30,011 nt of DNA from Candidatus Omnitrophota bacterium (lineage in GTDB: Bacteria; Ratteibacteria; UBA8468; MWAK01), in contig JAZDPL010000052.1 of NCBI GenBank assembly GCA_043797665.1, positions 1 through 30,011 on the forward strand, written 5' to 3'. The notes beneath the pieces are model-generated. The model saw nothing but the letters and a program-made list of their open reading frames with translations, did not search any database and was not told the DNA's origin. Of the stretch, positions 1 through 12,883 are shown in pieces (position 1 is the stretch's first letter; every line of letters starts with the position of its first letter). Made by a program: the position numbers and the translations under genes.

Positions 1-1
1 C

Positions 2-121
2 ACTCCCGGCAAGAATGGCCATCTTCGCAGTCGCACCATGATAAAGAGGATATTGAGTGAGAAAATACACGCCCAGGAGTTACGCAAGCATCTTGATGGC
101 TGGGATGATTTATGGCGTTGA
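2..121 (+). CDS. 3' end of a gene entering from the left edge (unknown product)
   Basis: Open frame TPGKNGHLRSRTMIKRILSEKIHAQELRKHLDGWDDLWR ends at TGA 119-121, converging on the next gene across a small AT-rich hairpin. No family recognised. Confidence 0.4.
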   Translation, partial: TPGKNGHLRSRTMIKRILSEKIHAQELRKHLDGWDDLWR

Positions 122-143
122 TTTTTCTTATTTTAGAAAACGG

Positions 144-413
144 TTAAAACGGTATGGCATCTTTAGCTTCTTTCTCCATTTTCGCAAGCCTCGTATAATA
201 ATCAGGAAATTCAGTAAGATGCGCTAAGGCGATTTTCCCTGTCGTTAAGGAATCATCATTCGTAACATTTGTTGCCGGGTCATGTAAGCCATGCTCTAAT
301 TCTACATCCATTCCCATCCGAAATTGCTCAACATCAAACGCATTCCAACGAACTCCTAATTTCTCGCCAATTTCCTTTGCTTCGCTTGCCGTAAAGTGTT
401 TTTTAGCCTCCAT
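144..413 (-). CDS. DUF5661-like small protein
   Basis: 89 aa with GMDVELEHG ... KIALAHL.E.PDYYTRL motifs; strong SD AAAGGAG upstream. Confidence 0.75.
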   Translation of the reverse strand: MEAKKHFTASEAKEIGEKLGVRWNAFDVEQFRMGMDVELEHGLHDPATNVTNDDSLTTGKIALAHLTEFPDYYTRLAKMEKEAKDAIPF

Positions 414-511: not shown

Positions 512-540
512 ATATTATCACCTTGCTGTAGGCAAGTCAA
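512..540 (-). promoter_or_regulatory. sigma70-type promoter for the DUF5661-like gene
   Basis: TTGACT-N17-TAATAT with extended -10 TG. Confidence 0.6.
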
Positions 541-546
541 AAAAAC

Positions 547-568
547 TAATTGCGACTGGGTGGTGGGG
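547..568 (+). repeat. junction direct repeat, copy 1 (TAATTGCGACTGGGTGGTGGGG)
   Basis: 22/22 identical to 2336-2357; related copies at 1132-1152 and 8778-8797. Confidence 0.85.
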
Positions 569-708
569 TAAAAAATAAAAAGCGAATTAGGTGCTCAAAT
601 AGTGTCTGGTCAGGAGTGAAATGTGGTAGAATTGGGAGTAGTAATTGGTTGGAAAAAATAACGTGATTCAGATAAGATAAATATGTTAAAATAACGATTG
701 GGGGAGGT

Positions 709-1125
709 ATGAAATCGACGACCGAATATTTGACGTTCTGTACAAAAGAAAAAAGGACCCTTATCAATATTACCTCCAAGGTGGAAGATGTGGTTCAGAA
801 GAGTGGGGTAAAGGAAGGTTTGTGTTTGGTCAATGCGATGCATATCACAGCCAGTATCTTTATCAATGACGACGAGTCCGGACTACACCGGGATTTTTTA
901 GAATGGTTAGAAAAGCTGGCACCCTATTCAAAGACCGCGTATAACCACAACCAAACCGGAGAGGATAACGGAGACGCCCATCTGAAAAGAACTGTGATGG
1001 GCAGAGAAGTGATGGTAGCAATAACCAACGGTAGATTGGATTTTGGTCCCTGGGAACAGATATTCTACGGTGAGTTTGACGGCTGCCGTCCGAAGAAAGT
1101 CTTGGTAAAAGTCCTCGGAGAATAA
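709..1125 (+). CDS. yjbQ: YjbQ/UPF0047 family protein (secondary thiamine-phosphate synthase-like)
   Basis: [24 protein letters not shown] and [13 protein letters not shown] motifs; SD GGGGGAGGT. Confidence 0.9.
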
Positions 1126-1131
1126 CCCGGT

Positions 1132-1152
1132 TTGCGGCTGGAGGGTGGGGTA
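1132..1152 (+). repeat. junction direct repeat, degenerate copy 2, merging into a G-rich tract
   Basis: TTGCGGCTGGAGGGTGGGGTA vs 550-570 TTGCGACTGGGTGGTGGGGTA (18/21). Confidence 0.65.
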
Positions 1153-1176
1153 GGGTGGCGGGAAAAAGATACTCAT

Positions 1177-2247
1177 TTAACCAATCTTCCTATACCTTAC
1201 GCTTCTTCCAAGACCGAGACGCTCAATCTTCTTAAGTTTCAGGAGTTTATTGAGAGCCTGGTTGACCGTTGGCCGAGCTACCTTGGTTTTTTCGGATATT
1301 TCCCTGGGAGTGGCCTCTTTTACGGTCTGAAGGTATTGCCAGACAGAGAATTGCTTCTGGGATAGGATCTTTTCAATATCTTCTTTGGACAGAAGGTCCA
1401 CCGCCATTTCCGATTGCTTAAAGAATACCCCCAGGAAGAAATCAAGCCAGGGAACAATATCCTCATTCCTGGTTTTGAAGGTCTTCTGGCTTTTTCTCAA
1501 GGCCATGTAGTAGTCTGGTTTATTATCTTCAATCAGTTTTTCATGAGATACATAAGGCATATACAAATAGCCTTCCCTTAATAACAGAAGGTTGGTGAGG
1601 ATTCGGGAAAGACGGCCGTTGCCGTCTTGGAAGGGGTGAATCTTTAGAAACTCAACCAGAAAGTTGGCTATGACAAGAAGCGGGTGGTGTTTTCTTTCTT
1701 TAAGGACATTCTGGGTCCACTCCACCAAATCAAGCATTTCCTTGGGGGTGAGGTAGGCGGGGGTGGTGTCAAAAAGGATGCCGATCGATTTTCCGGCTTC
1801 GTCTATCATCTGAACCTTATTTTCCTGTTTCTTATATTCTCCCCTGTGACGAATATCTTTTTCAACATATTTGAGCATTTCCCGGTGAAAATACTTAATG
1901 GTGCTTTCCGAGAAACGGAGACTTCCCCAGGAATCAAAGACATTCTGGAGGAGCTCGTAGTATCCTTTGACTTCCTGTTTGTCCCGGTCGGAAAACTTCT
2001 GGATGCTGATGCCCCGCATCAGTTTTTCTATGTCTTCATCGGAAAGCCGGGCGCCTTCAATCCGGGTGGAAGCGCCGGTTGAGGTAACCAGAACCGACCT
2101 CTTAAGACGCCCCAGTGCCTGAGGACTAAGTCTTGCCCCGGCTATCCATTGGCCTTTCAGTTCGTCTATCCGGGCGATTTTTGACCAAAGGGACGCGGGG
2201 ATGTTTTGAATCCTTTTCTCAAGCCCGTTATTGTTTTTCATAGTCAT
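1177..2247 (-). CDS. Fic family protein (class II-type) with C-terminal winged HTH
   Basis: Canonical Fic motif HPFQDGNGRLSR; N-terminal inhibitory motif STRIEG; C-terminal TPREISEKTKVARPTVNQALNKL HTH. Confidence 0.9.
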   Translation of the reverse strand: MTMKNNNGLEKRIQNIPASLWSKIARIDELKGQWIAGARLSPQALGRLKRSVLVTSTGASTRIEGARLSDEDIEKLMRGISIQKFSDRDKQEVKGYYELLQNVFDSWGSLRFSESTIKYFHREMLKYVEKDIRHRGEYKKQENKVQMIDEAGKSIGILFDTTPAYLTPKEMLDLVEWTQNVLKERKHHPLLVIANFLVEFLKIHPFQDGNGRLSRILTNLLLLREGYLYMPYVSHEKLIEDNKPDYYMALRKSQKTFKTRNEDIVPWLDFFLGVFFKQSEMAVDLLSKEDIEKILSQKQFSVWQYLQTVKEATPREISEKTKVARPTVNQALNKLLKLKKIERLGLGRSVRYRKIG

Positions 2248-2267
2248 AAGTAATTAATAGGAAAAAG

Positions 2268-2321
2268 TAATCTCATACTTCAACTATATTAGATTATATT
2301 AGATTATGGAAGAAAAGTCAA
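2268..2321 (-). promoter_or_regulatory. fic promoter overlapped by repeated operator-like boxes
   Basis: TTGACT(2321-2316)-N17-TATAAT(2298-2293); TATTAGATTA at 2287-2296 and 2297-2306; inverted copy TAATCTCATA at 2268-2277. Confidence 0.7.
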
Positions 2322-2335
2322 AAGGGAGAGAGAAT

Positions 2336-2357
2336 TAATTGCGACTGGGTGGTGGGG
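2336..2357 (+). repeat. junction direct repeat, copy 3
   Basis: Identical to 547-568. Confidence 0.85.
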
Positions 2358-2436
2358 GGGCACGTCAGACCTCGAAAAATTTGGCTTTCGGGGAACCGCA
2401 AACAGATAAAAGGGAAAGGTATGGTGCCGGCAAAAA

Positions 2437-3146
2437 CTAATAGCCGAAGAAGTTTTCCGTATGTATCTGCTCTCTGCGGACATTTTTCAGGCAGACTTCG
2501 AACATCGCCTTTACCATCCCCGGCGGTCCGAAGATGAGGATTGTTCGGTCCCGGGCATCAGGCATCCTGGTTGCTAATACATTCTCATCGATGCGACCGT
2601 ATAAACATTCAGGGTCTTTCGATTGGTAATCGGTCAGTGTGTAAAAAACCTTCAGGTTGGGATTTTCTTTGCGCCAGCGGTCAATCTCGGGTTTAAAGGC
2701 AATCTCTTCTTCCACCCGGTTTGAATAGAGGAGGACAACGTCGGTCTTCAACTTCCGGTCTGTAATATATTCCAAAATTGAAATTACCGGCGTGATACCG
2801 ATGCCGCCGATTAAAAAACCGATTTTCGGCTGTTCCTTCCGGAAGACGCAGTTGCCCAGCGGACCCTTTAACCAAACATCCTCCCCGGGCTGTGCAGTGC
2901 TTTAAGTCTGTTTGAAAAATCGCTGTCACTCAAGCGCTTGGTGAACTCAAGATAATCCCGTTCCGGCGAAGCTGAGGAGGAAAGATACTTGTTTAACAAC
3001 TGGTTGCCGGAATTGGCCGGGTCGAAGATAACCTGCAGAAATTGGCCGGGAATGAAATTCGGCTTTTGTTCCGGGATGAACCGGAAGCTTTCGACGGTGT
3101 CGGTTCTTTTTACCCGCTCCTTGAATTTTACCTTAAAAAAATTCAT
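2437..3146 (-). pseudogene. FAD/NAD(P)H-dependent oxidoreductase (ferredoxin reductase-like), frameshifted
   Basis: The N-part (F.PGQF, KYLSSSASP) and C-part (KGPLG, IGGIGITP, YSNR, FGPPGMV, IHTENFFGY) join if a 2-bp TG duplication at 2891-2894 is removed, giving about 235 aa. Confidence 0.8.
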
Positions 3147-3177
3147 AGACTAACAGAACCCAAACCTCTCCTCACTC

Positions 3178-3666
3178 CTATCCTTTTCTTTTGGCCAGAT
3201 TCCGGTCCATCACGGCGACAGCTTCGGACCCGGATTTCCCCGCTTTCAGTCCAGCGATAATCCGGGAAACGTTCTCTTCCTCTTCAGACTGTTCCTTGAC
3301 AAACCACTGGAGAAAGGTGAAAGCGGCTTTATCGTCCGCTTCTTTGGAAATACCGCAGAGCCGCTTAATCACCCCGGTTACTTTCTGTTCGTGCCTGTAA
3401 ACCAGTTCAAACAGGCACGGGGATGAAGTGAACTTTACCGGCGGCTGGTCAATCGCCTTCAAAACAACCTTTTCCCCCCGGCTAACCAAAAAATCATATA
3501 TCTTCATCCCGTGCGTCCACTCTTCCTTGAACTGAACCTTCAGCCAGTGCGAGAACCCCGTGAGCGGAATCGAATCGCAGTAGGCGGCCATAGACAAATA
3601 GAGATACGCTGAATAAAATTCTTTGTTTATCTGGTCGTTTAGAGCATCCCGTAATTTTTTGTTCAT
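3178..3666 (-). CDS. ftnA: non-heme ferritin
   Basis: NKEFYSAYLY, EEWTH, HEQKVT and FLQWFVKEQSEEE ferroxidase-centre motifs; SD GGAGG. Confidence 0.92.
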   Translation of the reverse strand: MNKKLRDALNDQINKEFYSAYLYLSMAAYCDSIPLTGFSHWLKVQFKEEWTHGMKIYDFLVSRGEKVVLKAIDQPPVKFTSSPCLFELVYRHEQKVTGVIKRLCGISKEADDKAAFTFLQWFVKEQSEEEENVSRIIAGLKAGKSGSEAVAVMDRNLAKRKG

Positions 3667-3738
3667 TTGACATCCTCCATTTGCCCATCAAAAAGAAACA
3701 TTTTAGCCTGATACCCTGCCTGTATATCTTCAGATTTT

Positions 3739-3773
3739 AGTGGAAACAATCACCTGATTTCAAGTTTGGGGTT
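3739..3773 (-). repeat. shared leader segment (ferritin copy)
   Basis: 32/35 identical to 8658-8692; 3729-3755 is 22/27 identical to 459-485. Confidence 0.8.
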
Positions 3774-3798
3774 AACTTCATTTTCACTGACTAACCAA

Positions 3799-3827
3799 AT
3801 CTTACCACCCCGTCAGGATAATCTCAA
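3799..3827 (-). promoter_or_regulatory. sigma70-type promoter for ferritin
   Basis: TTGAGA-N17-TAAGAT with extended -10 TG. Confidence 0.5.
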
Positions 3828-3912
3828 GCCCAGGATTATTGTGGTTTTGTAGTGAACCCTTATCCTTGGACTGGGGTGACCCCGCTATTTCATTTGTTTT
3901 GATTTCTTATTT

Positions 3913-4572
3913 CTATGTATTTTCACTATGTTTGATTAGTTTTGCTTCCGCCACGTAAACCACATCTTCGGCAATGTTGGTGGCATGGTCGCAAATGCGC
4001 TCTAAATGACGGGCGACCAGGATAAGCGGAATAGCCCGGGGAGCAAGATTGCAATCGCGGCTGATAATCTCAGTCAGTTCCTTGTAAACGGCGTCTTTCA
4101 AAAAGTCAGCTTCATCATCCTGTTTTCTGACGGAACGGGCCAGTTCTCCATCGAGGTTTACGAATGATTTGATACTCTCGTGGATCATATTTTGAGCAAG
4201 GCGTGCCAACTTAGGGATATCAATCAAAGGTTTAATGAGGGGTTGGCCAACTAACTCCAAGGTACGCTGGGCAATGTCAACCGCCAGGTCAGCCATCCGT
4301 TCCAGGTCGGTACCTATCTTCGTCGTCATAACAATCATCCGTAAATCTTTGGCAACCGGCTGGTTGCGAACAATAAAAACAAGCGTCTTTTCGTCGATTT
4401 CGTTCTCTAACCGATCGATACTGACATCTGCGGTGATTACCTCGTTGGCCAGTTCCGGGGAGAGACGTTCCAGAGAAGATACCGCTTTGCTGATTGCCTC
4501 TTCAACCATCCCACTCATTACCAGAATGGTACGTTTCAGTTCTTCTAATTCCAACTCGAAATGCCGTTCCAT
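3913..4572 (-). CDS. phoU: phosphate signalling complex protein PhoU
   Basis: QPVAKDLR, DLERMAD and HLERICDHATNIAE motifs; last gene of the pst cluster. Confidence 0.95.
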   Translation of the reverse strand: MERHFELELEELKRTILVMSGMVEEAISKAVSSLERLSPELANEVITADVSIDRLENEIDEKTLVFIVRNQPVAKDLRMIVMTTKIGTDLERMADLAVDIAQRTLELVGQPLIKPLIDIPKLARLAQNMIHESIKSFVNLDGELARSVRKQDDEADFLKDAVYKELTEIISRDCNLAPRAIPLILVARHLERICDHATNIAEDVVYVAEAKLIKHSENT

Positions 4573-4592
4573 AAAAGCCTCCCTCTTTTTTA

Positions 4593-5348
4593 TTAGCCAA
4601 AACGCCCGGTAATATATCTTTCAGTGCGAGTATCCTGGGGTTTCTCAAATACCTGTCTGGTCTCTCCAAATTCGACTAAATCACCGAGAAGGAAAAAGCC
4701 GCAGGAGTCGGAAATTCTGGCTGCCTGGTCCATATTGTGAGTTACGATAATAATCGTATATGTTATTTTAAGTTCTAACATTAATTCTTCTAACTTTTCA
4801 GTAGCGATAGAGTCAAGGGCGCTGCAAGGTTCGTCTAAGAGTATTATGTCAGGTTTGGTAGCAACTATTCTGGCCAGACAAAGCCGCTGCTGTTGGTCCA
4901 GAGGTAAAGAACATGCATCTTTTTTGAGGATATCCTTAAGGTCATTCCACAGCCAGGTGCTGCGCAGACTCTCCTCTACAACTCGGTCCCATTCTTTTTT
5001 GGGAAGAAGGTTATGTATTTTTAGACCGTATGTTACATTATCCCTGACGGAAAGCGGAAAAGGGTTCGGTCTCTGAAAGACCATCCCGATTTTTTTACGG
5101 AGTGAAATGAGGTCTGTGCTGGTAGCGTAAATGTTATTTCCGGCAATGGTAACCGCACCTTCTGTTTTTACATCTGGAATAAGATCGTTCATACGATTGA
5201 GACAACGTAAAAAAGTTGATTTGCCGCAACCAGACGGTCCGATCAGCGCAGTAATCCGATTCGCCTCAAAGTTTACATTTACATCTCTGAGTGCTTGGAA
5301 AGTTCCGTAGTAAAGGTTGAGACCTTTTACTTCTACTGTACAAACCAT
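4593..5348 (-). CDS. pstB: phosphate ABC transporter ATPase with degenerate signature motif
   Basis: GPSGCGKST, GMVFQRPNPF, LLDEP, VTHNM and YITGRFG; signature reads LPLDQ instead of LSGGQ. Confidence 0.92.
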   Translation of the reverse strand: MVCTVEVKGLNLYYGTFQALRDVNVNFEANRITALIGPSGCGKSTFLRCLNRMNDLIPDVKTEGAVTIAGNNIYATSTDLISLRKKIGMVFQRPNPFPLSVRDNVTYGLKIHNLLPKKEWDRVVEESLRSTWLWNDLKDILKKDACSLPLDQQQRLCLARIVATKPDIILLDEPCSALDSIATEKLEELMLELKITYTIIIVTHNMDQAARISDSCGFFLLGDLVEFGETRQVFEKPQDTRTERYITGRFG

Positions 5349-5351
5349 TTC

Positions 5352-6110
5352 TTATCCGAATTTTCCGGCTATGTAATTTTCAGTCATTTTGTCTTTAGGT
5401 GCAGTAAAAATCTGTTCCGTTTCGCCATATTCCACCATCTTGCCTTGAAGGAAAAAAGCGGTATAGTCAGCCACGCGCGCAACCTGCTTGGTATTGTTTG
5501 TTACCAGGATGAACGAGACCTCTTTTTTAAGATGGATGATAGTTTCTTCTATTTTGGCCGTGGAAATCGGGTCCAGTCCGCTGCACGGATCATCCAGGAG
5601 GATAACCTGCGGTTTTAAGGCAATGATTCTGGCTAAGCATAGACGCTGTTGCTGGCCGCCGGAAAGTTTTAAAGCCGATAAGTTCAGGCGGTTTTGTACT
5701 TCATCCCATAAAGAAGCGGCTTGGAGTCCGTATCTTACCAACCGTTCAAGTTCGGCACGGTTCTTTACTCCCATCAGCCTGGGACCAAAAGTCAGATTGC
5801 GATAGATAGACATTGGCAATGGAATTGGCAGGGCGAAGACCATCCCGATTTTTCTTCTCAGTTCAACAAGATTGATTGATGAGTCAAAAATATCTTTGCC
5901 TTCAAAGATTACCGTCCCTTTTGTTTGATATCCTTCGTCGAACTCAATCAGGCGGTTAAGGAGGCGTAAAAACGAAGTTTTACCGCTGCCCGTCGGACCG
6001 ATGATGCCCAGGATGCTGTTCCGGTTCAGGGAGAGAGAGATTGAGGTTAGAATCGATTTACCGTTATTCCAAAGGGAGAGGTCTTTAGTCTCCAGAATCG
6101 GGTCACTCAT
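5352..6110 (-). CDS. pstB: phosphate ABC transporter ATPase paralogue with degenerate catalytic motifs
   Basis: GPTGSGKTS, LSGGQQQR and YIAGKFG; but Q-loop GMVFALP, Walker B LLDDP and H-switch VTNN. Confidence 0.9.
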   Translation of the reverse strand: MSDPILETKDLSLWNNGKSILTSISLSLNRNSILGIIGPTGSGKTSFLRLLNRLIEFDEGYQTKGTVIFEGKDIFDSSINLVELRRKIGMVFALPIPLPMSIYRNLTFGPRLMGVKNRAELERLVRYGLQAASLWDEVQNRLNLSALKLSGGQQQRLCLARIIALKPQVILLDDPCSGLDPISTAKIEETIIHLKKEVSFILVTNNTKQVARVADYTAFFLQGKMVEYGETEQIFTAPKDKMTENYIAGKFG

Positions 6111-6949
6111 GATTTTTCAATAAATTTATGCATGGCATAATAGGCGAAGGTGTTAATGACAAGTATCATCAAGACCAAAAGTGCGGCTGTACCGTAAGCA
6201 TTCGGCATACTGATACCTTCCCGGGCCAGAATATAAAAATGGACCGCCATGGTCCGGACTGAGTCCATAGCCGAAAGAGGTATCTTCAAAGAAGAACCGG
6301 CAGTGAAGATCACCGCCGCAGTCTCACCGATGGAGCGACCGAACGCAAGCATCACACCGGTGAAGATGCCGGGGAGAGCAGAAGGCAGGACAACTTTTGT
6401 AATTCCTTCCCATTTGGTCGCACCCAGAGAGAGAGCTACTTCCCGGTAATACCGAGGGACTGATTTAATAGATTCTTCGCTGGTTCTGATTATGGTGGGA
6501 AGTACCATGATGGCAAGAGTTAGCCCGCCGGAAAGGATTGACCAACCCATTTTGAGGGTGACCACAAAGAGGACGAAGCCAAAAAGTCCGAAGATGATGG
6601 ATGGAACTCCAGCTAAACATTCGGCACCGAACCTTATGATTGTGGTAAGTTTAGTTTCCTTGGTGTATTCGGTCAAATAGATTGCGGTTCCCACACCTGA
6701 AGGAACAGCGAACAAAAGCGCTACCAGAGGCAACAGGAACGTGCCTAAAATGGTCGGAAAGATTCCGCCTGCTTCACCCATTGTTTTCGGCATACCGAAA
6801 ATGAATTTAAGCCTCAACACCGGTAATCCCTTTGCCAGAATATATCCGAGAATGAAAAGTAAGATGAAGAGTACCAACGCAGCCATAACTCCAAAATAGA
6901 CATCCGTTATCCGTTGTGTTCTAACCGGGTTATATCCAAGTATTTTCAT
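6107..6949 (-). CDS. pstA: phosphate ABC transporter permease PstA
   Basis: AIYLTEY, LAGVPSIIFGLFG, EAA-like loop and GRSIGETA; overlaps pstB. Confidence 0.93.
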   Translation of the reverse strand: MKILGYNPVRTQRITDVYFGVMAALVLFILLFILGYILAKGLPVLRLKFIFGMPKTMGEAGGIFPTILGTFLLPLVALLFAVPSGVGTAIYLTEYTKETKLTTIIRFGAECLAGVPSIIFGLFGFVLFVVTLKMGWSILSGGLTLAIMVLPTIIRTSEESIKSVPRYYREVALSLGATKWEGITKVVLPSALPGIFTGVMLAFGRSIGETAAVIFTAGSSLKIPLSAMDSVRTMAVHFYILAREGISMPNAYGTAALLVLMILVINTFAYYAMHKFIEKS

Positions 6950-7800
6950 TTGGCCGCTTCCTTACATCCCAGCCGGGAGATGTAGGTAGCCATTAAGTTC
7001 AGAACCATGATGAAGATAAAAAGTATTATTCCGGTAGCAAAGAGCGCCTTTTGATGGTCACCGGTGGCATAACCCATTTCCAGAGCGATATTGCTGGTAA
7101 GCGGCCTGACCGGGTCCAGAAGCGAGTGGGGTATATTGAGCGCATTTCCGGCTACCATGATGACGGCCATCGTTTCACCGATGGCGCGTCCCATTCCAAG
7201 AATTACCGAAGCCAGGATGCCATTACGCGCCGCACGCACCACGACAAAAATGGTTGTTTGCCAGCGTGTCGCTCCCATGGAGATAGACGCTTCGCGGAAC
7301 GAGTTTGGAACCGCCTTTAATGAATCGGTAGAGATGCTGACAATGGTTGGTAAAATCATTATTCCCAAAATTATACTTCCAGCCAGCAGGGAAAAACCCG
7401 GTCCGCCTAAAATCCCTCTTATAAACGGAATCAGGATTACCACACCCATAAATCCGTAGACCACCGAAGGTATTCCTGCCAGAAGTTCGATGGCAGGTTT
7501 GAGGAACTTCCGGATTTTGTCACCAGCGATTTCAGCCAGAAATATGGCGCAGGAAAGTCCGGTCGGGACCCCGATAATCAGTGCGCCAATCGTTATCCAG
7601 ACCGAAGAGAGAATCATCGGCAGAATTCCAAATTCACCGTTTGAAGGCGACCATTCTCTGCCGGTGAGAAAATTAAGGATTCCAATCTTAAATATCAGGG
7701 GTAGACCTTCCCGGAAGATGAAAAAGGTTATCACTGCCAAAGACGCAATCGAAGAGAAGGCGATGATCAGAAGCACCTTGCCGGCAAAATTTTTGTTCAT
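6946..7800 (-). CDS. pstC: phosphate ABC transporter permease PstC
   Basis: W.P..G.FGILPMI, ELLAGIPSVVYG and GMGRAIGETMAV. Confidence 0.93.
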   Translation of the reverse strand: MNKNFAGKVLLIIAFSSIASLAVITFFIFREGLPLIFKIGILNFLTGREWSPSNGEFGILPMILSSVWITIGALIIGVPTGLSCAIFLAEIAGDKIRKFLKPAIELLAGIPSVVYGFMGVVILIPFIRGILGGPGFSLLAGSIILGIMILPTIVSISTDSLKAVPNSFREASISMGATRWQTTIFVVVRAARNGILASVILGMGRAIGETMAVIMVAGNALNIPHSLLDPVRPLTSNIALEMGYATGDHQKALFATGIILFIFIMVLNLMATYISRLGCKEAAK

Positions 7801-8639
7801 TGCATAATTTCTATTTTAATTAGACCTTTCTTCGCCACTATATCCTGGCCTTCTTCAGAGAGGCAAAAGTTAATGAAATCTTCAGCCAGAGGGTTATTTC
7901 GGTTTTTCAGAATAAAGAGAAAAGGCCGAAATATTCCGTATCTTTTATCTTTAACCGTTTCTACGGTCGGGAGGATACCATCAATGGCGAGCGGTTTTAC
8001 CCGTTTGTCTACCAGCCCTAACGAAATATAACCGACGGCGTTCGGATCACCGGCCACGATTTCCCTTACGGCTCCGTTGGAATCTTGTACCAATGCCGAA
8101 TTGGAGATTCGCTCACTCTTTTTGGAACCCGGTACCCTCATAACCGTTTCTTCAAAACTTTTTCGGGTTCCGGAACCTTCTTCCCGCGTGACTACGGTAA
8201 TAGGCAGGTTGTCTATTTTGGAAATGCGACCGGCAAAGAGGTCTCTTAATTGTTCACTGGATAAGTCGGCCAGGGAGGAACTAGCGTTAGCGATGATGGC
8301 GATAGCGTCTAAAGCCACCAAGACCTTGGATAATTTTTTCTGGCCGTTAGAATCAGATTCTTCATCAGGTTGAAGTTCTCGCGACGACATGCCAATATCC
8401 GAAACGCCGGTAAGGGCTGATTCGATGCCGGCGCTCGAACCGCCTCCTTGGACGACTACTTTGGCTTCCGGATGCTTTGCAGTATAAGCCTCTGCCCACA
8501 ATTCGGCAAAGGGCTGAACAGAGGTTGAACCGGCAAGGATAAGTTTCTTTCCGGTATGTTTGGCGCACGAACTGAGAAAGGAACAGATAACGATGGTTAT
8601 CAGAAGAGAGGTTGTGGATTTCAGGTGGTGTAAGGTCAT
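7797..8639 (-). CDS. pstS: phosphate ABC transporter substrate-binding lipoprotein
   Basis: Lipobox-like LSSC; GSTSV, GGGSSAG, SSR, REEGSGTR and GYISLG motifs. Confidence 0.9.
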   Translation of the reverse strand: MTLHHLKSTTSLLITIVICSFLSSCAKHTGKKLILAGSTSVQPFAELWAEAYTAKHPEAKVVVQGGGSSAGIESALTGVSDIGMSSRELQPDEESDSNGQKKLSKVLVALDAIAIIANASSSLADLSSEQLRDLFAGRISKIDNLPITVVTREEGSGTRKSFEETVMRVPGSKKSERISNSALVQDSNGAVREIVAGDPNAVGYISLGLVDKRVKPLAIDGILPTVETVKDKRYGIFRPFLFILKNRNNPLAEDFINFCLSEEGQDIVAKKGLIKIEIMQ

Positions 8640-8657
8640 GACAGATTATACTTTGCC

Positions 8658-8692
8658 AATGGAAACAATCGCCTGATTTCAAGTTTGCGGTT
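8658..8692 (-). repeat. shared leader segment (pstS copy)
   Basis: 32/35 identical to 3739-3773. Confidence 0.8.
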
Positions 8693-8734
8693 TGGTGTTG
8701 GTCCGGGTCATTCCCCTTCTTGGACACCGAACAA

Positions 8735-8764
8735 ATGTTAGCACTTTGCCAGAAGACCGGTCAA
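8735..8764 (-). promoter_or_regulatory. distal sigma70-type promoter of the pst operon
   Basis: TTGACC-N18-TAACAT with TG; its GCAAAGTGCTAACATTT resembles GCAAGGTGATAATATTT of the 512-540 promoter. Confidence 0.5.
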
Positions 8765-8777
8765 GGGCTTTTGGGAG

Positions 8778-8797
8778 AAACTAATTGCGACAGGATG
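8778..8797 (+). repeat. junction direct repeat, copy 4
   Basis: AAACTAATTGCGACAGGATG vs 543-562 AAACTAATTGCGACTGGGTG (18/20; first 14 identical). Confidence 0.7.
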
Positions 8798-8916
8798 AAA
8801 GGTACAGAAGAATCAATTTGTTTTTCCTTTTTATCTTCTTCCATTTTTTGTATGATTAATCTATTGCTATTTCACCAGCCTTTTTTAAAGCGATTTTTGT
8901 GTACGAAGCTCGGAAT

Positions 8917-10980
8917 TCATTTCAGTTTTAAATGCGGATTCGTGCGAATTTTTTCCAGTGCCGGCGGGATTTCATATCCCAATATCTCTGCCTGATGAAT
9001 GTCCTTCCATGCTTTATCGAAGTTCCCTTTTGCCATATATGTAATACCCCGGTTAAAATAGATTTCGGCTAAATCAGGGTTGATTTCTACCGCCTGGGTA
9101 AGGATAATAATAGCTTTGTCGTAAGCTCCTTTTTTGCCGTACGCAACCCCCATCTTCCCATAGGCTTTTGCACAATGCGGGTCAATCGTTATCGCCTGGG
9201 TATAATCAGTAATGGCTTTATCGTAGTCTCCTTTTTTTAAATATGAATTCCCTCGGTTGTAGTATGCATCTGTATATCCCGGGTTAGACAGTAGTGTCTG
9301 GGTAAAATCAGCGATGGCCTTGTCGTATTCCTCTTGGCTCTCGTAGACAATGCCCCGGTTATAATAAACAACAAAAATATAATTCGGACTAAGCTTTAAT
9401 GTCCGGGTAAAATCAGCGATGGCGTTGGTATACTCTTTTTTTTGAGAGTAGGCAAGCCCCCGGTTATAATAAGCGTCTGCGTATTGAGGGTTAATCGTTA
9501 TTGCCTGGTTACAATCAGCAATAGCCTGGTCGTATTCTCCTTTTTTTAAATATACATTCGCCCGATTGTTGTAGGAAAAGGTAAATCTCGGGTTAATTCG
9601 GAGTGCCTGGTCAAAGTCGGCAATAGCTTTTTCGTATTCCTGTTGTTCTTCCAAATAGGCAAGCCCCCGGCTATCGTATGCTCTGGCTTTGTTTGGAGAT
9701 TTTTGGACCACATCGTTCCATATGGTGAATTCATTTTTCCAGACACGGTTCCGGTTGTAAGCCATGGTTGAATAGCAGATTACTATTAATGTTAACAATC
9801 CTGTTGTCAGATGGAGTCTTTTATTTCGGAAAATGTAGTAGATAATCACTGGCAGAAAAATGCTGTAGCCGACCATCGGCAAATAAATCCGGTGTTCGAA
9901 GATGACATCCTTAATGGGTACAATACTGGATTCCGGCACCAGGGTAAGAAAGAACCAGAAGATAGAAAAGGAAACGAGGCGGTTTTTCCGGAAGAGGAGA
10001 ACTGCAGTTAATAAAAGCAGTATCAACAGGCAAAGCCCGGCTAATGTTGGCAGGGTAAATAAGGTTTGGGCAATAGGATAGTCATAATCAAGGTTTTGAT
10101 TTACGGGTATCAAAAGGAGCCTTAGGTAGGTGACTATCACCCGGAACTGGGTAAGCAGGTAGGTTCCGGAAGAAATCATAATCGAATCGGATGGGGCCTG
10201 GGTTAAATGCCGTAATTCTCTGAAGTCAATGGAACCGGTTGCCCGTATAGTTACCAGTGTGGCCAACAGGATAATAAAGAACGGGATGATTTGTTTACAC
10301 AATAGTTTACGGTTTGTTTGAAAGAAGCATAACTCGTAGAGTATTAATATAAAAGGCAGGGTGATGGTGATTTCCTTGGTGAACAGTGCCAATCCCGCAG
10401 TCAGGATGGAACCAGCATAGTACCGTTGCCAGCCGGGTGGGGCCGGTTTTTCGGCATACTTCAACCGTGTTTTTACATAAAGGCACAGCGAGGCTAAATA
10501 AAAGAATGTTGCCAGGGATGTTGCGCGCTGGATAATATAAGTTACCGCCTGGGTTTGTACCGGGTGTGCTACAAATATTAATCCGCCAAAAAAAGCCAGC
10601 AGGTTGGCGTATCTGGCAGCCGCTATGTTTTTTATAGCCGGCGAGGAAAAGGTCAGGATGATAAGCCAGCGAACCAGTAATGCTGCACCCAGATGTACGG
10701 CCAAATTAAAGAGATGGTAGCCAGGAAGGGAGAATTGGTGGAAGTGATAGTTGCAGGCGAGGGAGAGAAAAGTAAAGAACCGGGTGGCACAATGATTCCA
10801 GATAACACGCAGGTTCAGTATGTTTCTAATAGCAGGATTGGTAACTATATTGCCGGCGTCATCAAAGTGAAACGAATTCTGGAAGGTGTTGGAATAAATA
10901 AGTATACCTAACAAACATAAAACAATAACTGTAAATATCCGGTTTGTACCTTTTTGGGGAATTTTTGATGGACGGCGCAT
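8917..10980 (-). CDS. TMTC-like GT-C membrane glycosyltransferase with 7 C-terminal TPRs
   Basis: FHFDD motif after TM1, HPVQTQAVTYI, KE and EHRIYLP; many TM segments; seven YYNRG...AIADF...P-type TPR units. Confidence 0.8.
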   Translation of the reverse strand: MRRPSKIPQKGTNRIFTVIVLCLLGILIYSNTFQNSFHFDDAGNIVTNPAIRNILNLRVIWNHCATRFFTFLSLACNYHFHQFSLPGYHLFNLAVHLGAALLVRWLIILTFSSPAIKNIAAARYANLLAFFGGLIFVAHPVQTQAVTYIIQRATSLATFFYLASLCLYVKTRLKYAEKPAPPGWQRYYAGSILTAGLALFTKEITITLPFILILYELCFFQTNRKLLCKQIIPFFIILLATLVTIRATGSIDFRELRHLTQAPSDSIMISSGTYLLTQFRVIVTYLRLLLIPVNQNLDYDYPIAQTLFTLPTLAGLCLLILLLLTAVLLFRKNRLVSFSIFWFFLTLVPESSIVPIKDVIFEHRIYLPMVGYSIFLPVIIYYIFRNKRLHLTTGLLTLIVICYSTMAYNRNRVWKNEFTIWNDVVQKSPNKARAYDSRGLAYLEEQQEYEKAIADFDQALRINPRFTFSYNNRANVYLKKGEYDQAIADCNQAITINPQYADAYYNRGLAYSQKKEYTNAIADFTRTLKLSPNYIFVVYYNRGIVYESQEEYDKAIADFTQTLLSNPGYTDAYYNRGNSYLKKGDYDKAITDYTQAITIDPHCAKAYGKMGVAYGKKGAYDKAIIILTQAVEINPDLAEIYFNRGITYMAKGNFDKAWKDIHQAEILGYEIPPALEKIRTNPHLKLK

Positions 10981-11003: not shown

Positions 11004-12797
<1,794 letters not shown>

Positions 12798-12853
12798 ATG
12801 GTGGATTATATTGAGATTTTTGGGAAATAAGACGTTTCTTTGAAAAGAAAGAC

Positions 12854-12883
12854 TTGCATTTTTCTCTGTATGCATGGTATCAT
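12854..12883 (+). promoter_or_regulatory. promoter of the nusA operon
   Basis: TTGCAT-N18-TATCAT with extended -10 TG. Confidence 0.5.

Follow-up and report, generated by a model that had tools for sequence, protein, structure and literature searches.

A short asymmetric box at the junctions of accessory gene modules in a lineage of Candidatus Omnitrophota

Examination of positions 1-30,011 (forward strand) of contig JAZDPL010000052.1 from a Candidatus Omnitrophota bacterium (assembly GCA_043797665.1; Ratteibacteria; UBA8468; MWAK01), a stretch of 30,011 nt hereafter called the window, reveals a 28-bp intergenic sequence, the box, at which accessory gene modules are joined. The source genome (G000, 86% complete) was compared with relatives, among them the genomes G001 and G005 and the genus g3, with core genes about 72% identical between the genera compared. 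The box belongs to a real, lineage-specific module-junction system: sequences on its two sides are reassorted and whole modules are found relocated, so that modules are gained, lost and moved at the box. This bears out in part the suspicion of the initial annotation that a direct repeat in this region delimits accessory modules. As to how this comes about, we give an about even chance to the box being a conserved promoter head that doubles as a common short homology for module exchange.

On its C-rich strand the box has the consensus TACCCCACC-N5-GTCGCAATTAGTTT, that is, two conserved blocks flanking a variable 5-bp centre, and it often leads directly into a TTGAC-like hexamer. The order along this strand is the end of a gene, a variable spacer, the box, a sigma-70-type promoter, a leader and the next gene. 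Four copies lie in the window (Table 1). The two perfect matches first reported, at 547-568 and 2336-2357, indeed agree at 22 of 22 positions, with 0.00 such matches expected by chance (100 shuffles), and the counts given for the other two, 18/21 at 1132-1152 and 18/20 at 8778-8797, are reproduced. Over the full 22-mer each of the latter matches at 16 of 22 positions, the two being clipped on opposite sides; the arm loss of the second copy amounts to a deletion of about 35 bp relative to intact yjbQ-side copies (C71, L081). It was also correctly noted that all four copies are intergenic and on one strand, that -35 boxes lie 6-18 bp from three of them (minus-strand -35 hexamers start at 540, 2321 and 8764), and that the housekeeping part of the window lacks the motif. 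The best plus-strand score in 9000-29900 is -1.3 bits, so there is no plus-strand copy there, and neither strand of the housekeeping part has a box of at least 13 bits. The proposed remnant at 3866-3878 is not a copy, scoring below -20 bits on both strands.

A genome-wide search at a threshold of 16 bits, with a profile derived from near matches, recovers 54 copies in G000 and none in an equal-length Markov-4 null genome. These copies form 25 clusters over 19 contigs, so that repeated integration at a single target, as originally suggested, is not supported. Orientation is uniform in 10 of the 11 multi-copy clusters, one copy of the 54 overlaps an open reading frame (ORF) of at least 120 aa, and with respect to the C-rich strand the following gene is co-oriented at 38/43 sites and the preceding gene at 37/52. 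Opposite orientations occur only 6 kb apart on contig C71, GC skew is positive at 20/54 sites (the contigs being short), and octamers resembling FtsK-orienting polar sequences (KOPS) and Chi show no excess genome-wide (z at most 2.2). The neighbouring genes, from a scan of 115 ORFs, are a mixed accessory set including Fic, DarT-DarG, ParE, HicA, nucleotidyltransferases, ankyrin and TPR proteins, nitroreductase and pilin-like proteins, and they are placed behind core genes such as gyrB, uvrA, purA, glyQ and hisF. Behind purA, for instance, a DarT-DarG pair forms a box-bounded module (L008:757-2484). At the ends of two contigs (C40:1-740 and C64:8926-9675) stand two diverged copies of one arrangement, box-spacer-box-promoter-start of DUF502, with unlike upstream genes, which may be paralogues or strain alternatives. 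An insertion sequence has apparently landed just behind a box with a 12-bp target duplication (C90:17085 and C44:24663), splitting the hisF-anchored array across contigs.

Among the genomes searched the box is confined to one family. A pattern allowing two mismatches gives 44, 18, 7, 5, 2, 2, 1, 0 and 0 matches in nine genomes of the family; reversed-pattern controls give 0-3, so the low per-genome counts are not all real. A stricter pattern has no match in 32 genomes from other families of the class, and an exact scan of a species-level genome collection returns six loci in two genomes. In viral contigs, box patterns have 3 and 9 exact matches and the commonest flank has 18, which looked like chance. 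None of the viral profile matches inspected has a second box or a flank family, and the commonest promoter family has no match in viral contigs.

For the counts that follow, 98 non-redundant sites of at least 19 bits were pooled from G000, its relatives and metagenome loci, after 14 loci had been removed by eye as chance matches (L047-049, L077, L095-097, L100-102 and L104-107). A promoter-like pair follows within 30 nt of the box at 55/94 sites, where shuffled sequences give a mean of 0.97 and a maximum of 4; on the other side of the box such a pair is present at 2/97. The distance from box to -35 varies between 4 and 29 nt, and there are groups of sites near 4 and 17-20 nt. The arm nearer the promoter is better kept when a promoter follows (0.47 versus 1.28 mismatches in 10 positions, p=0.0006, or p=0.043 once families are collapsed), whereas the G-rich arm is indifferent to promoter presence (1.0 versus 0.9 mismatches of 9). 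At 38 of the 98 sites the box ends in a -35-like TTG hexamer. No hairpin or dyad symmetry is detected in the 98 sites on either strand with DNA or RNA parameters (mean folding z -0.23 to +0.51), the box alone folds to nothing, and no stem-loop terminator was found in it. The sequences around it fall into 11 upstream and 12 downstream flank families, and the spacers hold reused leaders, gene fragments, island-end scraps and tRNA-like pieces.

The left and right flanks assort almost freely at the box. In G000 alone, 2 of 1485 pairs of sites share both flanks, 33 share the upstream flank only and 41 the downstream flank only; in the pooled set 4 pairs are alike on both sides, against 2.1 expected under independence, with 87 and 106 alike on one side. 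When the box is masked, homology persists across it in 10/209 and 10/195 ordered pairs (about 5%), whereas over an equal jump within the flank toward the box it persists in 64/89 and 61/78 (72-78%), and away from the box in 31%. Within the box, variants at the upstream end are linked to the upstream flank, and from position 23 onward they are linked to the downstream one.

Whole modules, each reaching from one box to the next, are found relocated. The yjbQ module of the window (554 bp) recurs at 96.6% identity beside different neighbours in locus L081; its upstream junction stops some 30 bp before the box. The zincin module (438/441 bp, 97.5-98%) occurs twice in the species of G001 next to unlike neighbours, and a non-coding module (208/213 bp, 84.7%) likewise has unlike neighbours in its two copies. 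At C61:81850-82447 G000 has a flank, a box and a promoter, and the same locus in G001 has the same flank family, a box, the zincin module, a box and the same promoter family (81% and 86% identity). Judged by family-level identity this locus thus looks empty in one genome and filled in the other, the kind of gain or loss at the motif that the initial annotation had proposed to look for. Also in G001, a gene of C22 meets the carA promoter region at a box and a different module stands behind typA; fic, the reductase, ferritin and pst are each found in other contexts in relatives. Contigs of public runs aligned at 85% contain no empty-site joint of 568 to 2358 among the matches listed, which is not evidence of absence. 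One contig in X11 joins 1130 to 542; it does not read as a circle but as the yjbQ of a relative with an intact box behind it.

Several junctions bear on how new genes enter. The fic gene and its promoter have box-less homologues in genus g3 at 89% and 84% identity, well above the 73% of pst, and the homology sets in some 6 bp beyond the box, where the -35 context is shared; a TPR-gene promoter meets the box at a shared GTTTTGAC. A copy of hycI includes 4 bp ahead of the start and 1 bp behind the stop and sits after a resident promoter and leader. From their sequence these three joins look like microhomology joins, and we infer the direction of each transfer. At the hycI locus (L084:1560-3727) the native gene is internally deleted between short repeats, and an intact copy lies two modules downstream, where the reused promoter and leader are joined to it 4 bp ahead of the start. 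An established route to such joins is natural transformation with illegitimate joining, according to the available text of 10.1101/2023.11.22.568220. ComEC is present in 10/10 genomes searched, which allows DNA uptake and does not single out the lineage. Elsewhere, at L030:3300-5360, a 2-kb insertion in G001 carries HicB-like and EVE-like ORFs (by eye) and a box, and the corresponding G000 site is box-less; both inserted genes are headed by a second repeat that resembles island ends.

In light of these junctions, we propose that the box, as the sequence common to all modules, could act as a hub for their recombination. Short-homology recombination between boxes, with no fixed scissile bond, would excise, insert or swap modules of promoter plus gene, probably via circles or incoming DNA; exchange at boxes would spare the genes and leave gene and promoter together, and a transcriptional role could keep the box conserved. 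Entry by microhomology at the -35 hexamer would let a gene retain its own promoter, as for fic, and entry at the start codon would give it the resident promoter and leader, as for the hycI copy.

The sharp linkage break at the box could also be the work of an enzyme. The box might be a dedicated recombination or nicking site for a candidate enzyme of the host or of a visiting element, with the arrays forming an integron-like capture platform of promoter-bearing cassettes over many loci; this we consider unlikely. Spelled out, and no less doubtful in that form, a lineage-specific system would capture genes at a novel sort of asymmetric, non-folding 28-bp site, where a putative enzyme nicks or recombines, repair synthesis joins foreign genes at the -35 or the start codon, and cassettes circulate among about 25 arrays and between genera. 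The two blocks around a variable centre would suit such a site, as would the G-rich arm kept equally with or without a promoter, the direct orientation within arrays, the duplication of the box around the zincin module and the copying of hycI nearly from start to stop. If such an enzyme exists, this would be a new recombination system. On the other hand, the 98 sites lack dyad symmetry and hairpins, and the points of exchange vary: from the two copies of the zincin module, exchange would have taken place around box position 9 at one end and around 27 at the other, individual pairs of sites point to different positions, and the joins of half-boxes with foreign DNA lie at several places. Together these comparisons suggest that the crossover has no fixed position in or just beside the box. 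With crossovers so variable and no conserved recombinase linked to the box, the scars of site-specific att integration first envisaged are not established.

The search for an enzyme was directed at named families. Of the six tyrosine recombinases of G000, two are XerC/XerD-like and the other four are island-type integrases, of which at least three stand beside tRNA genes; the three island integrases scanned reach at best 64.5 with TIGR02249 against a cut-off of 265, which, as the genome is 86% complete, does not prove the absence of an integron integrase. A box lies near just one recombinase, the C1 integrase, at 1.85 kb; at nine loci of its relatives besides that of G000, the surrounding 1.5 kb are box-less. 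Two Y1 matches, two IS110 matches, one reverse transcriptase and two large serine recombinases are present in G000, none of them beside boxes. MOBP and MOBQ relaxases (PF03432, PF03389) were absent from 5/5 genomes each, other MOB families not having been searched; PF04986 matched in 0/10 genomes, though its control matched nowhere; and Tn3 transposase matched in 0/10. Thus no dedicated enzyme for the box was found within these families and this degree of genome completeness. Resemblances to nick sites of relaxases, to Tn3 inverted repeats and to attI, UP elements and extracytoplasmic-function (ECF) promoters served as leads only, and the relaxase and Tn3 searches came back empty. Other elements met with in G000 are a locus resembling a diversity-generating retroelement (C50:5469-10036), with a large ORF, an Avd-like small ORF, a template-repeat-like region and a 347-aa reverse transcriptase, and two IS110-family elements (C43:36000-37300 and C34:2100-3300) whose ends abut ribosome-binding-site-like sequence. 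In genus g1 the catalytic domain of the XerD-like (C79:58128-59063) and XerC-like (C17:9926-10846) proteins exceeds that of other relatives by about 13-28 residues.

One upstream flank family, found at 21/98 sites and dominant in genus g3, hardly ever occurs box-less: it has a box in 7/8 occurrences, and the eighth stands beside a decayed box. The box plus this flank could be what is left of the end of an extinct non-autonomous element, or of an island end, that once had an outward promoter, the copies now recombining passively. Insertion-sequence ends often carry a -35-like hexamer, as the TTG-ended boxes do, and many spacers contain the island-end scraps and tRNA-like pieces mentioned above. 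We nevertheless think this origin quite improbable, as no inverted partner end, hairpin or linked transposase was found, the filled-versus-empty site L030 / C17:1933-1992 shows no target duplication, and the exact consensus is retained across genera with such diverged core genes. A reading of the box as nothing more than the operator of a transcription-factor regulon, with the nearby rearrangements incidental, appears very improbable. Its strong polarity toward promoters, the tracking of promoter presence by the promoter-side arm and the asymmetric bipartite shape would fit an operator, and the promoter link remains strong. Nevertheless, a pure transcription-factor site, the alternative raised in the initial annotation, fails because the spacing to the -35 is variable, the downstream genes are unrelated and differ between genomes, and the regions upstream of recA and uvrB, like that of ssb, are box-less, with no score reaching -8 bits; lexA was not located. 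Boxes also stand at yjbQ 3' ends and in non-coding modules, and homology breaks at the box.

The proposal of a promoter head serving as short homology has difficulties of its own. Ordinary RecA recombination needs more than 28 bp of imperfect homology would readily offer, and the chief weakness of the proposal is that so little homology must account for so complete a reassortment; since the flanks are nonetheless near linkage equilibrium across the box, something may stimulate exchange there. Further points that weigh against the proposal are: 1) conservation is uneven (chi-square p=1.6e-7; 21 core columns, 54 own copies), as expected of a protein site; 2) exact consensus copies occur in two genera; 3) 39/94 sites have no promoter-like pair within 30 nt; 4) the spacing to the -35 has no helical phasing; 5) three promoter families are box-less in 7/13, 8/13 and 11/13 copies; 6) the pairs compared are not independent events, owing to shared descent; 7) neither a circle, in contigs of relatives only, nor a transcript was observed.

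Table 1. Features of the window around the box copies.
Feature	Position	Strand	Remarks
DUF5661 gene	144..413	-	after promoter 512..540 and reused leader piece 449-485; Pfam
Sigma-70-type promoter, reused family	512..540	-	also before TPR gene (C33); box-less at C9, C22, C92
Box copy 1, full 28 bp	543..570	+	46.6 bits; functional sense minus strand, toward promoter at 540
yjbQ (UPF0047) module	571..1124, gene 709-1125	+	reversed relative to box; Pfam
yjbQ extended -10-like TGTGGTAGAAT	622-632		
Box copy 2	1125..1152	+	25.7 bits; promoter-side arm gone
fic module	1153..2331, gene 1177-2247, promoter 2293-2321	-	Pfam
Box copy 3, full	2332..2359	+	40.1 bits
NAD-binding reductase, frameshifted	2437-3146	-	in other contexts in relatives; Pfam
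Ferritin	3178-3666	-	in other contexts in relatives; Pfam
Reused leader segments and promoter	leader 3662-3773, promoter 3799-3827	-	box-less here
Different shared 53-bp segment	3848..3900		holds 3866-3878; 96% identical to G000:C71, G001:C159
pstS-pstC-pstA-pstB-pstB-phoU operon	3913..8639	-	Pfam
Reused promoter and leader	promoter 8735-8764, leader 8660-8712	-	before pstS
Box copy 4, half site	8778..8805	+	14.2 bits; promoter-side arm kept, G-rich arm swapped for foreign DNA
Scrap: membrane-protein gene 3' end and trailer	8799..8900	-	gene extends further upstream in G001:C46 (96%)
Membrane/TPR gene	8917..10980	-	paralogues after boxes at C33, C61; missing after typA in G001

The gene names of the initial annotation agree with Pfam, and a scan of the window against Rfam gave no matches. 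The promoter type at 3799-3827 is joined to a box 17-26 bp away in contigs of one public run. The reductase frameshift lies near 2870-2890, and a homologue in G005 (C28, 82%) covers the full stretch; the gene may be a pseudogene or the frameshift an assembly error. Beyond the TPR gene, typA (11004-12875) is 78-81% identical to its genus-g3 homologues and the adjacent nusA 72-73%, the two lying on separate contigs in that genus. At the other end, contig C56 overlaps the window start by 141 bp (window 1-141) and contains upstream, by eye, a type I restriction subunit-like gene, a toxin-antitoxin-like pair and a nuclease-like 172-aa ORF ending at about window position 121.

No description of the box was found in the literature, subscription papers and bioRxiv supplements lying outside the search; a term search of the available text of 10.64898/2026.06.07.730766 likewise gave none. 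Tandem att sites of tRNA islands were considered and set aside: the window has no Rfam match, and 7 of the 25 clusters lie within 3.3 kb of a tRNA gene, the nearest at 112 bp, while the other 18 do not. Repetitive extragenic palindromes (REP), miniature inverted-repeat transposable elements (MITE) and insertion-sequence ends were likewise dismissed, as no palindrome, inverted partner end, target duplication or cognate transposase was found. With the dif/pdif modules of XerCD the box shares a length of about 28 bp, a variable centre and the bounding of gene modules; unlike pdif sites, boxes are direct rather than alternating. The initial annotation was right that the motif is not dif: a separate dif-like site exists in 5/5 genomes searched, and the box shares neither of its arms. 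This site, at G000:C49:12661-12684, is single-copy per genome and conserved.

Integron arrays resemble the box arrays in their tandem, co-oriented accessory genes (toxin-antitoxin, DarT-DarG, Fic and small unknowns) between repeats, and in the capture of one ORF nearly from start to stop. They differ in that the box has no hairpin and no invariant GTT, its cassettes carry promoters, many loci are occupied and no integron integrase was found. Consistent with this, the motif was rightly described as neither palindromic nor attC: it does not fold, and the G of its only GTT-like position is present in 25/54 copies. The hycI and fic joins may be snapshots of cassette birth, the origin of cassettes being still a question for integrons, and the system would be a route of gene gain overlooked by integron and island finders.

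Closer likenesses come from elements that combine repeats with promoters. In the CUP (conserved upstream repeat) operons of IncN plasmids, so far as the available text of PMC5371602 describes them, co-oriented operons are headed by a repeat, a promoter and a putative regulator site, and recombination between repeats rearranges the region; there a few long repeats occupy a plasmid leading region under a named regulator, in contrast to 54 short boxes in 25 chromosomal clusters with no regulator identified. Putative mobile promoters, as outlined in the available text of PMC3575422, are highly similar promoter regions before non-homologous genes whose mode of movement is unexplained; they occur mostly as pairs, unlike the dozen promoter families that share one box and reassort across it. 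The nearest parallel lies in the PeSL (promoter-early stem-loop) cassettes of the T4-like phages RB49 and phi1, where, according to the available text of PMC2839356, homologous exchange occurs at variable points between promoter-bearing repeats, with mini-circles and no integrase. Like the PeSL, the box is a repeated intergenic element with a sigma-70-like promoter that flanks accessory ORFs in variable regions; insertions, deletions and replacements are bounded by it, crossovers vary and no integrase was found. Unlike the PeSL, it resides in a bacterial chromosome and has no stem-loop terminator, and its shared part is a 28-bp non-promoter sequence followed by many unrelated promoter families; the mini-circles are those described for the PeSL. 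By this analogy, and with middling confidence, we suggest that the box system is a chromosomal analogue of the T4 PeSLs rather than, for want of a stem-loop, a member of them; a cellular chromosome would then arrange accessory genes as large phages do, as self-expressing modules joined at one short box without an integrase.

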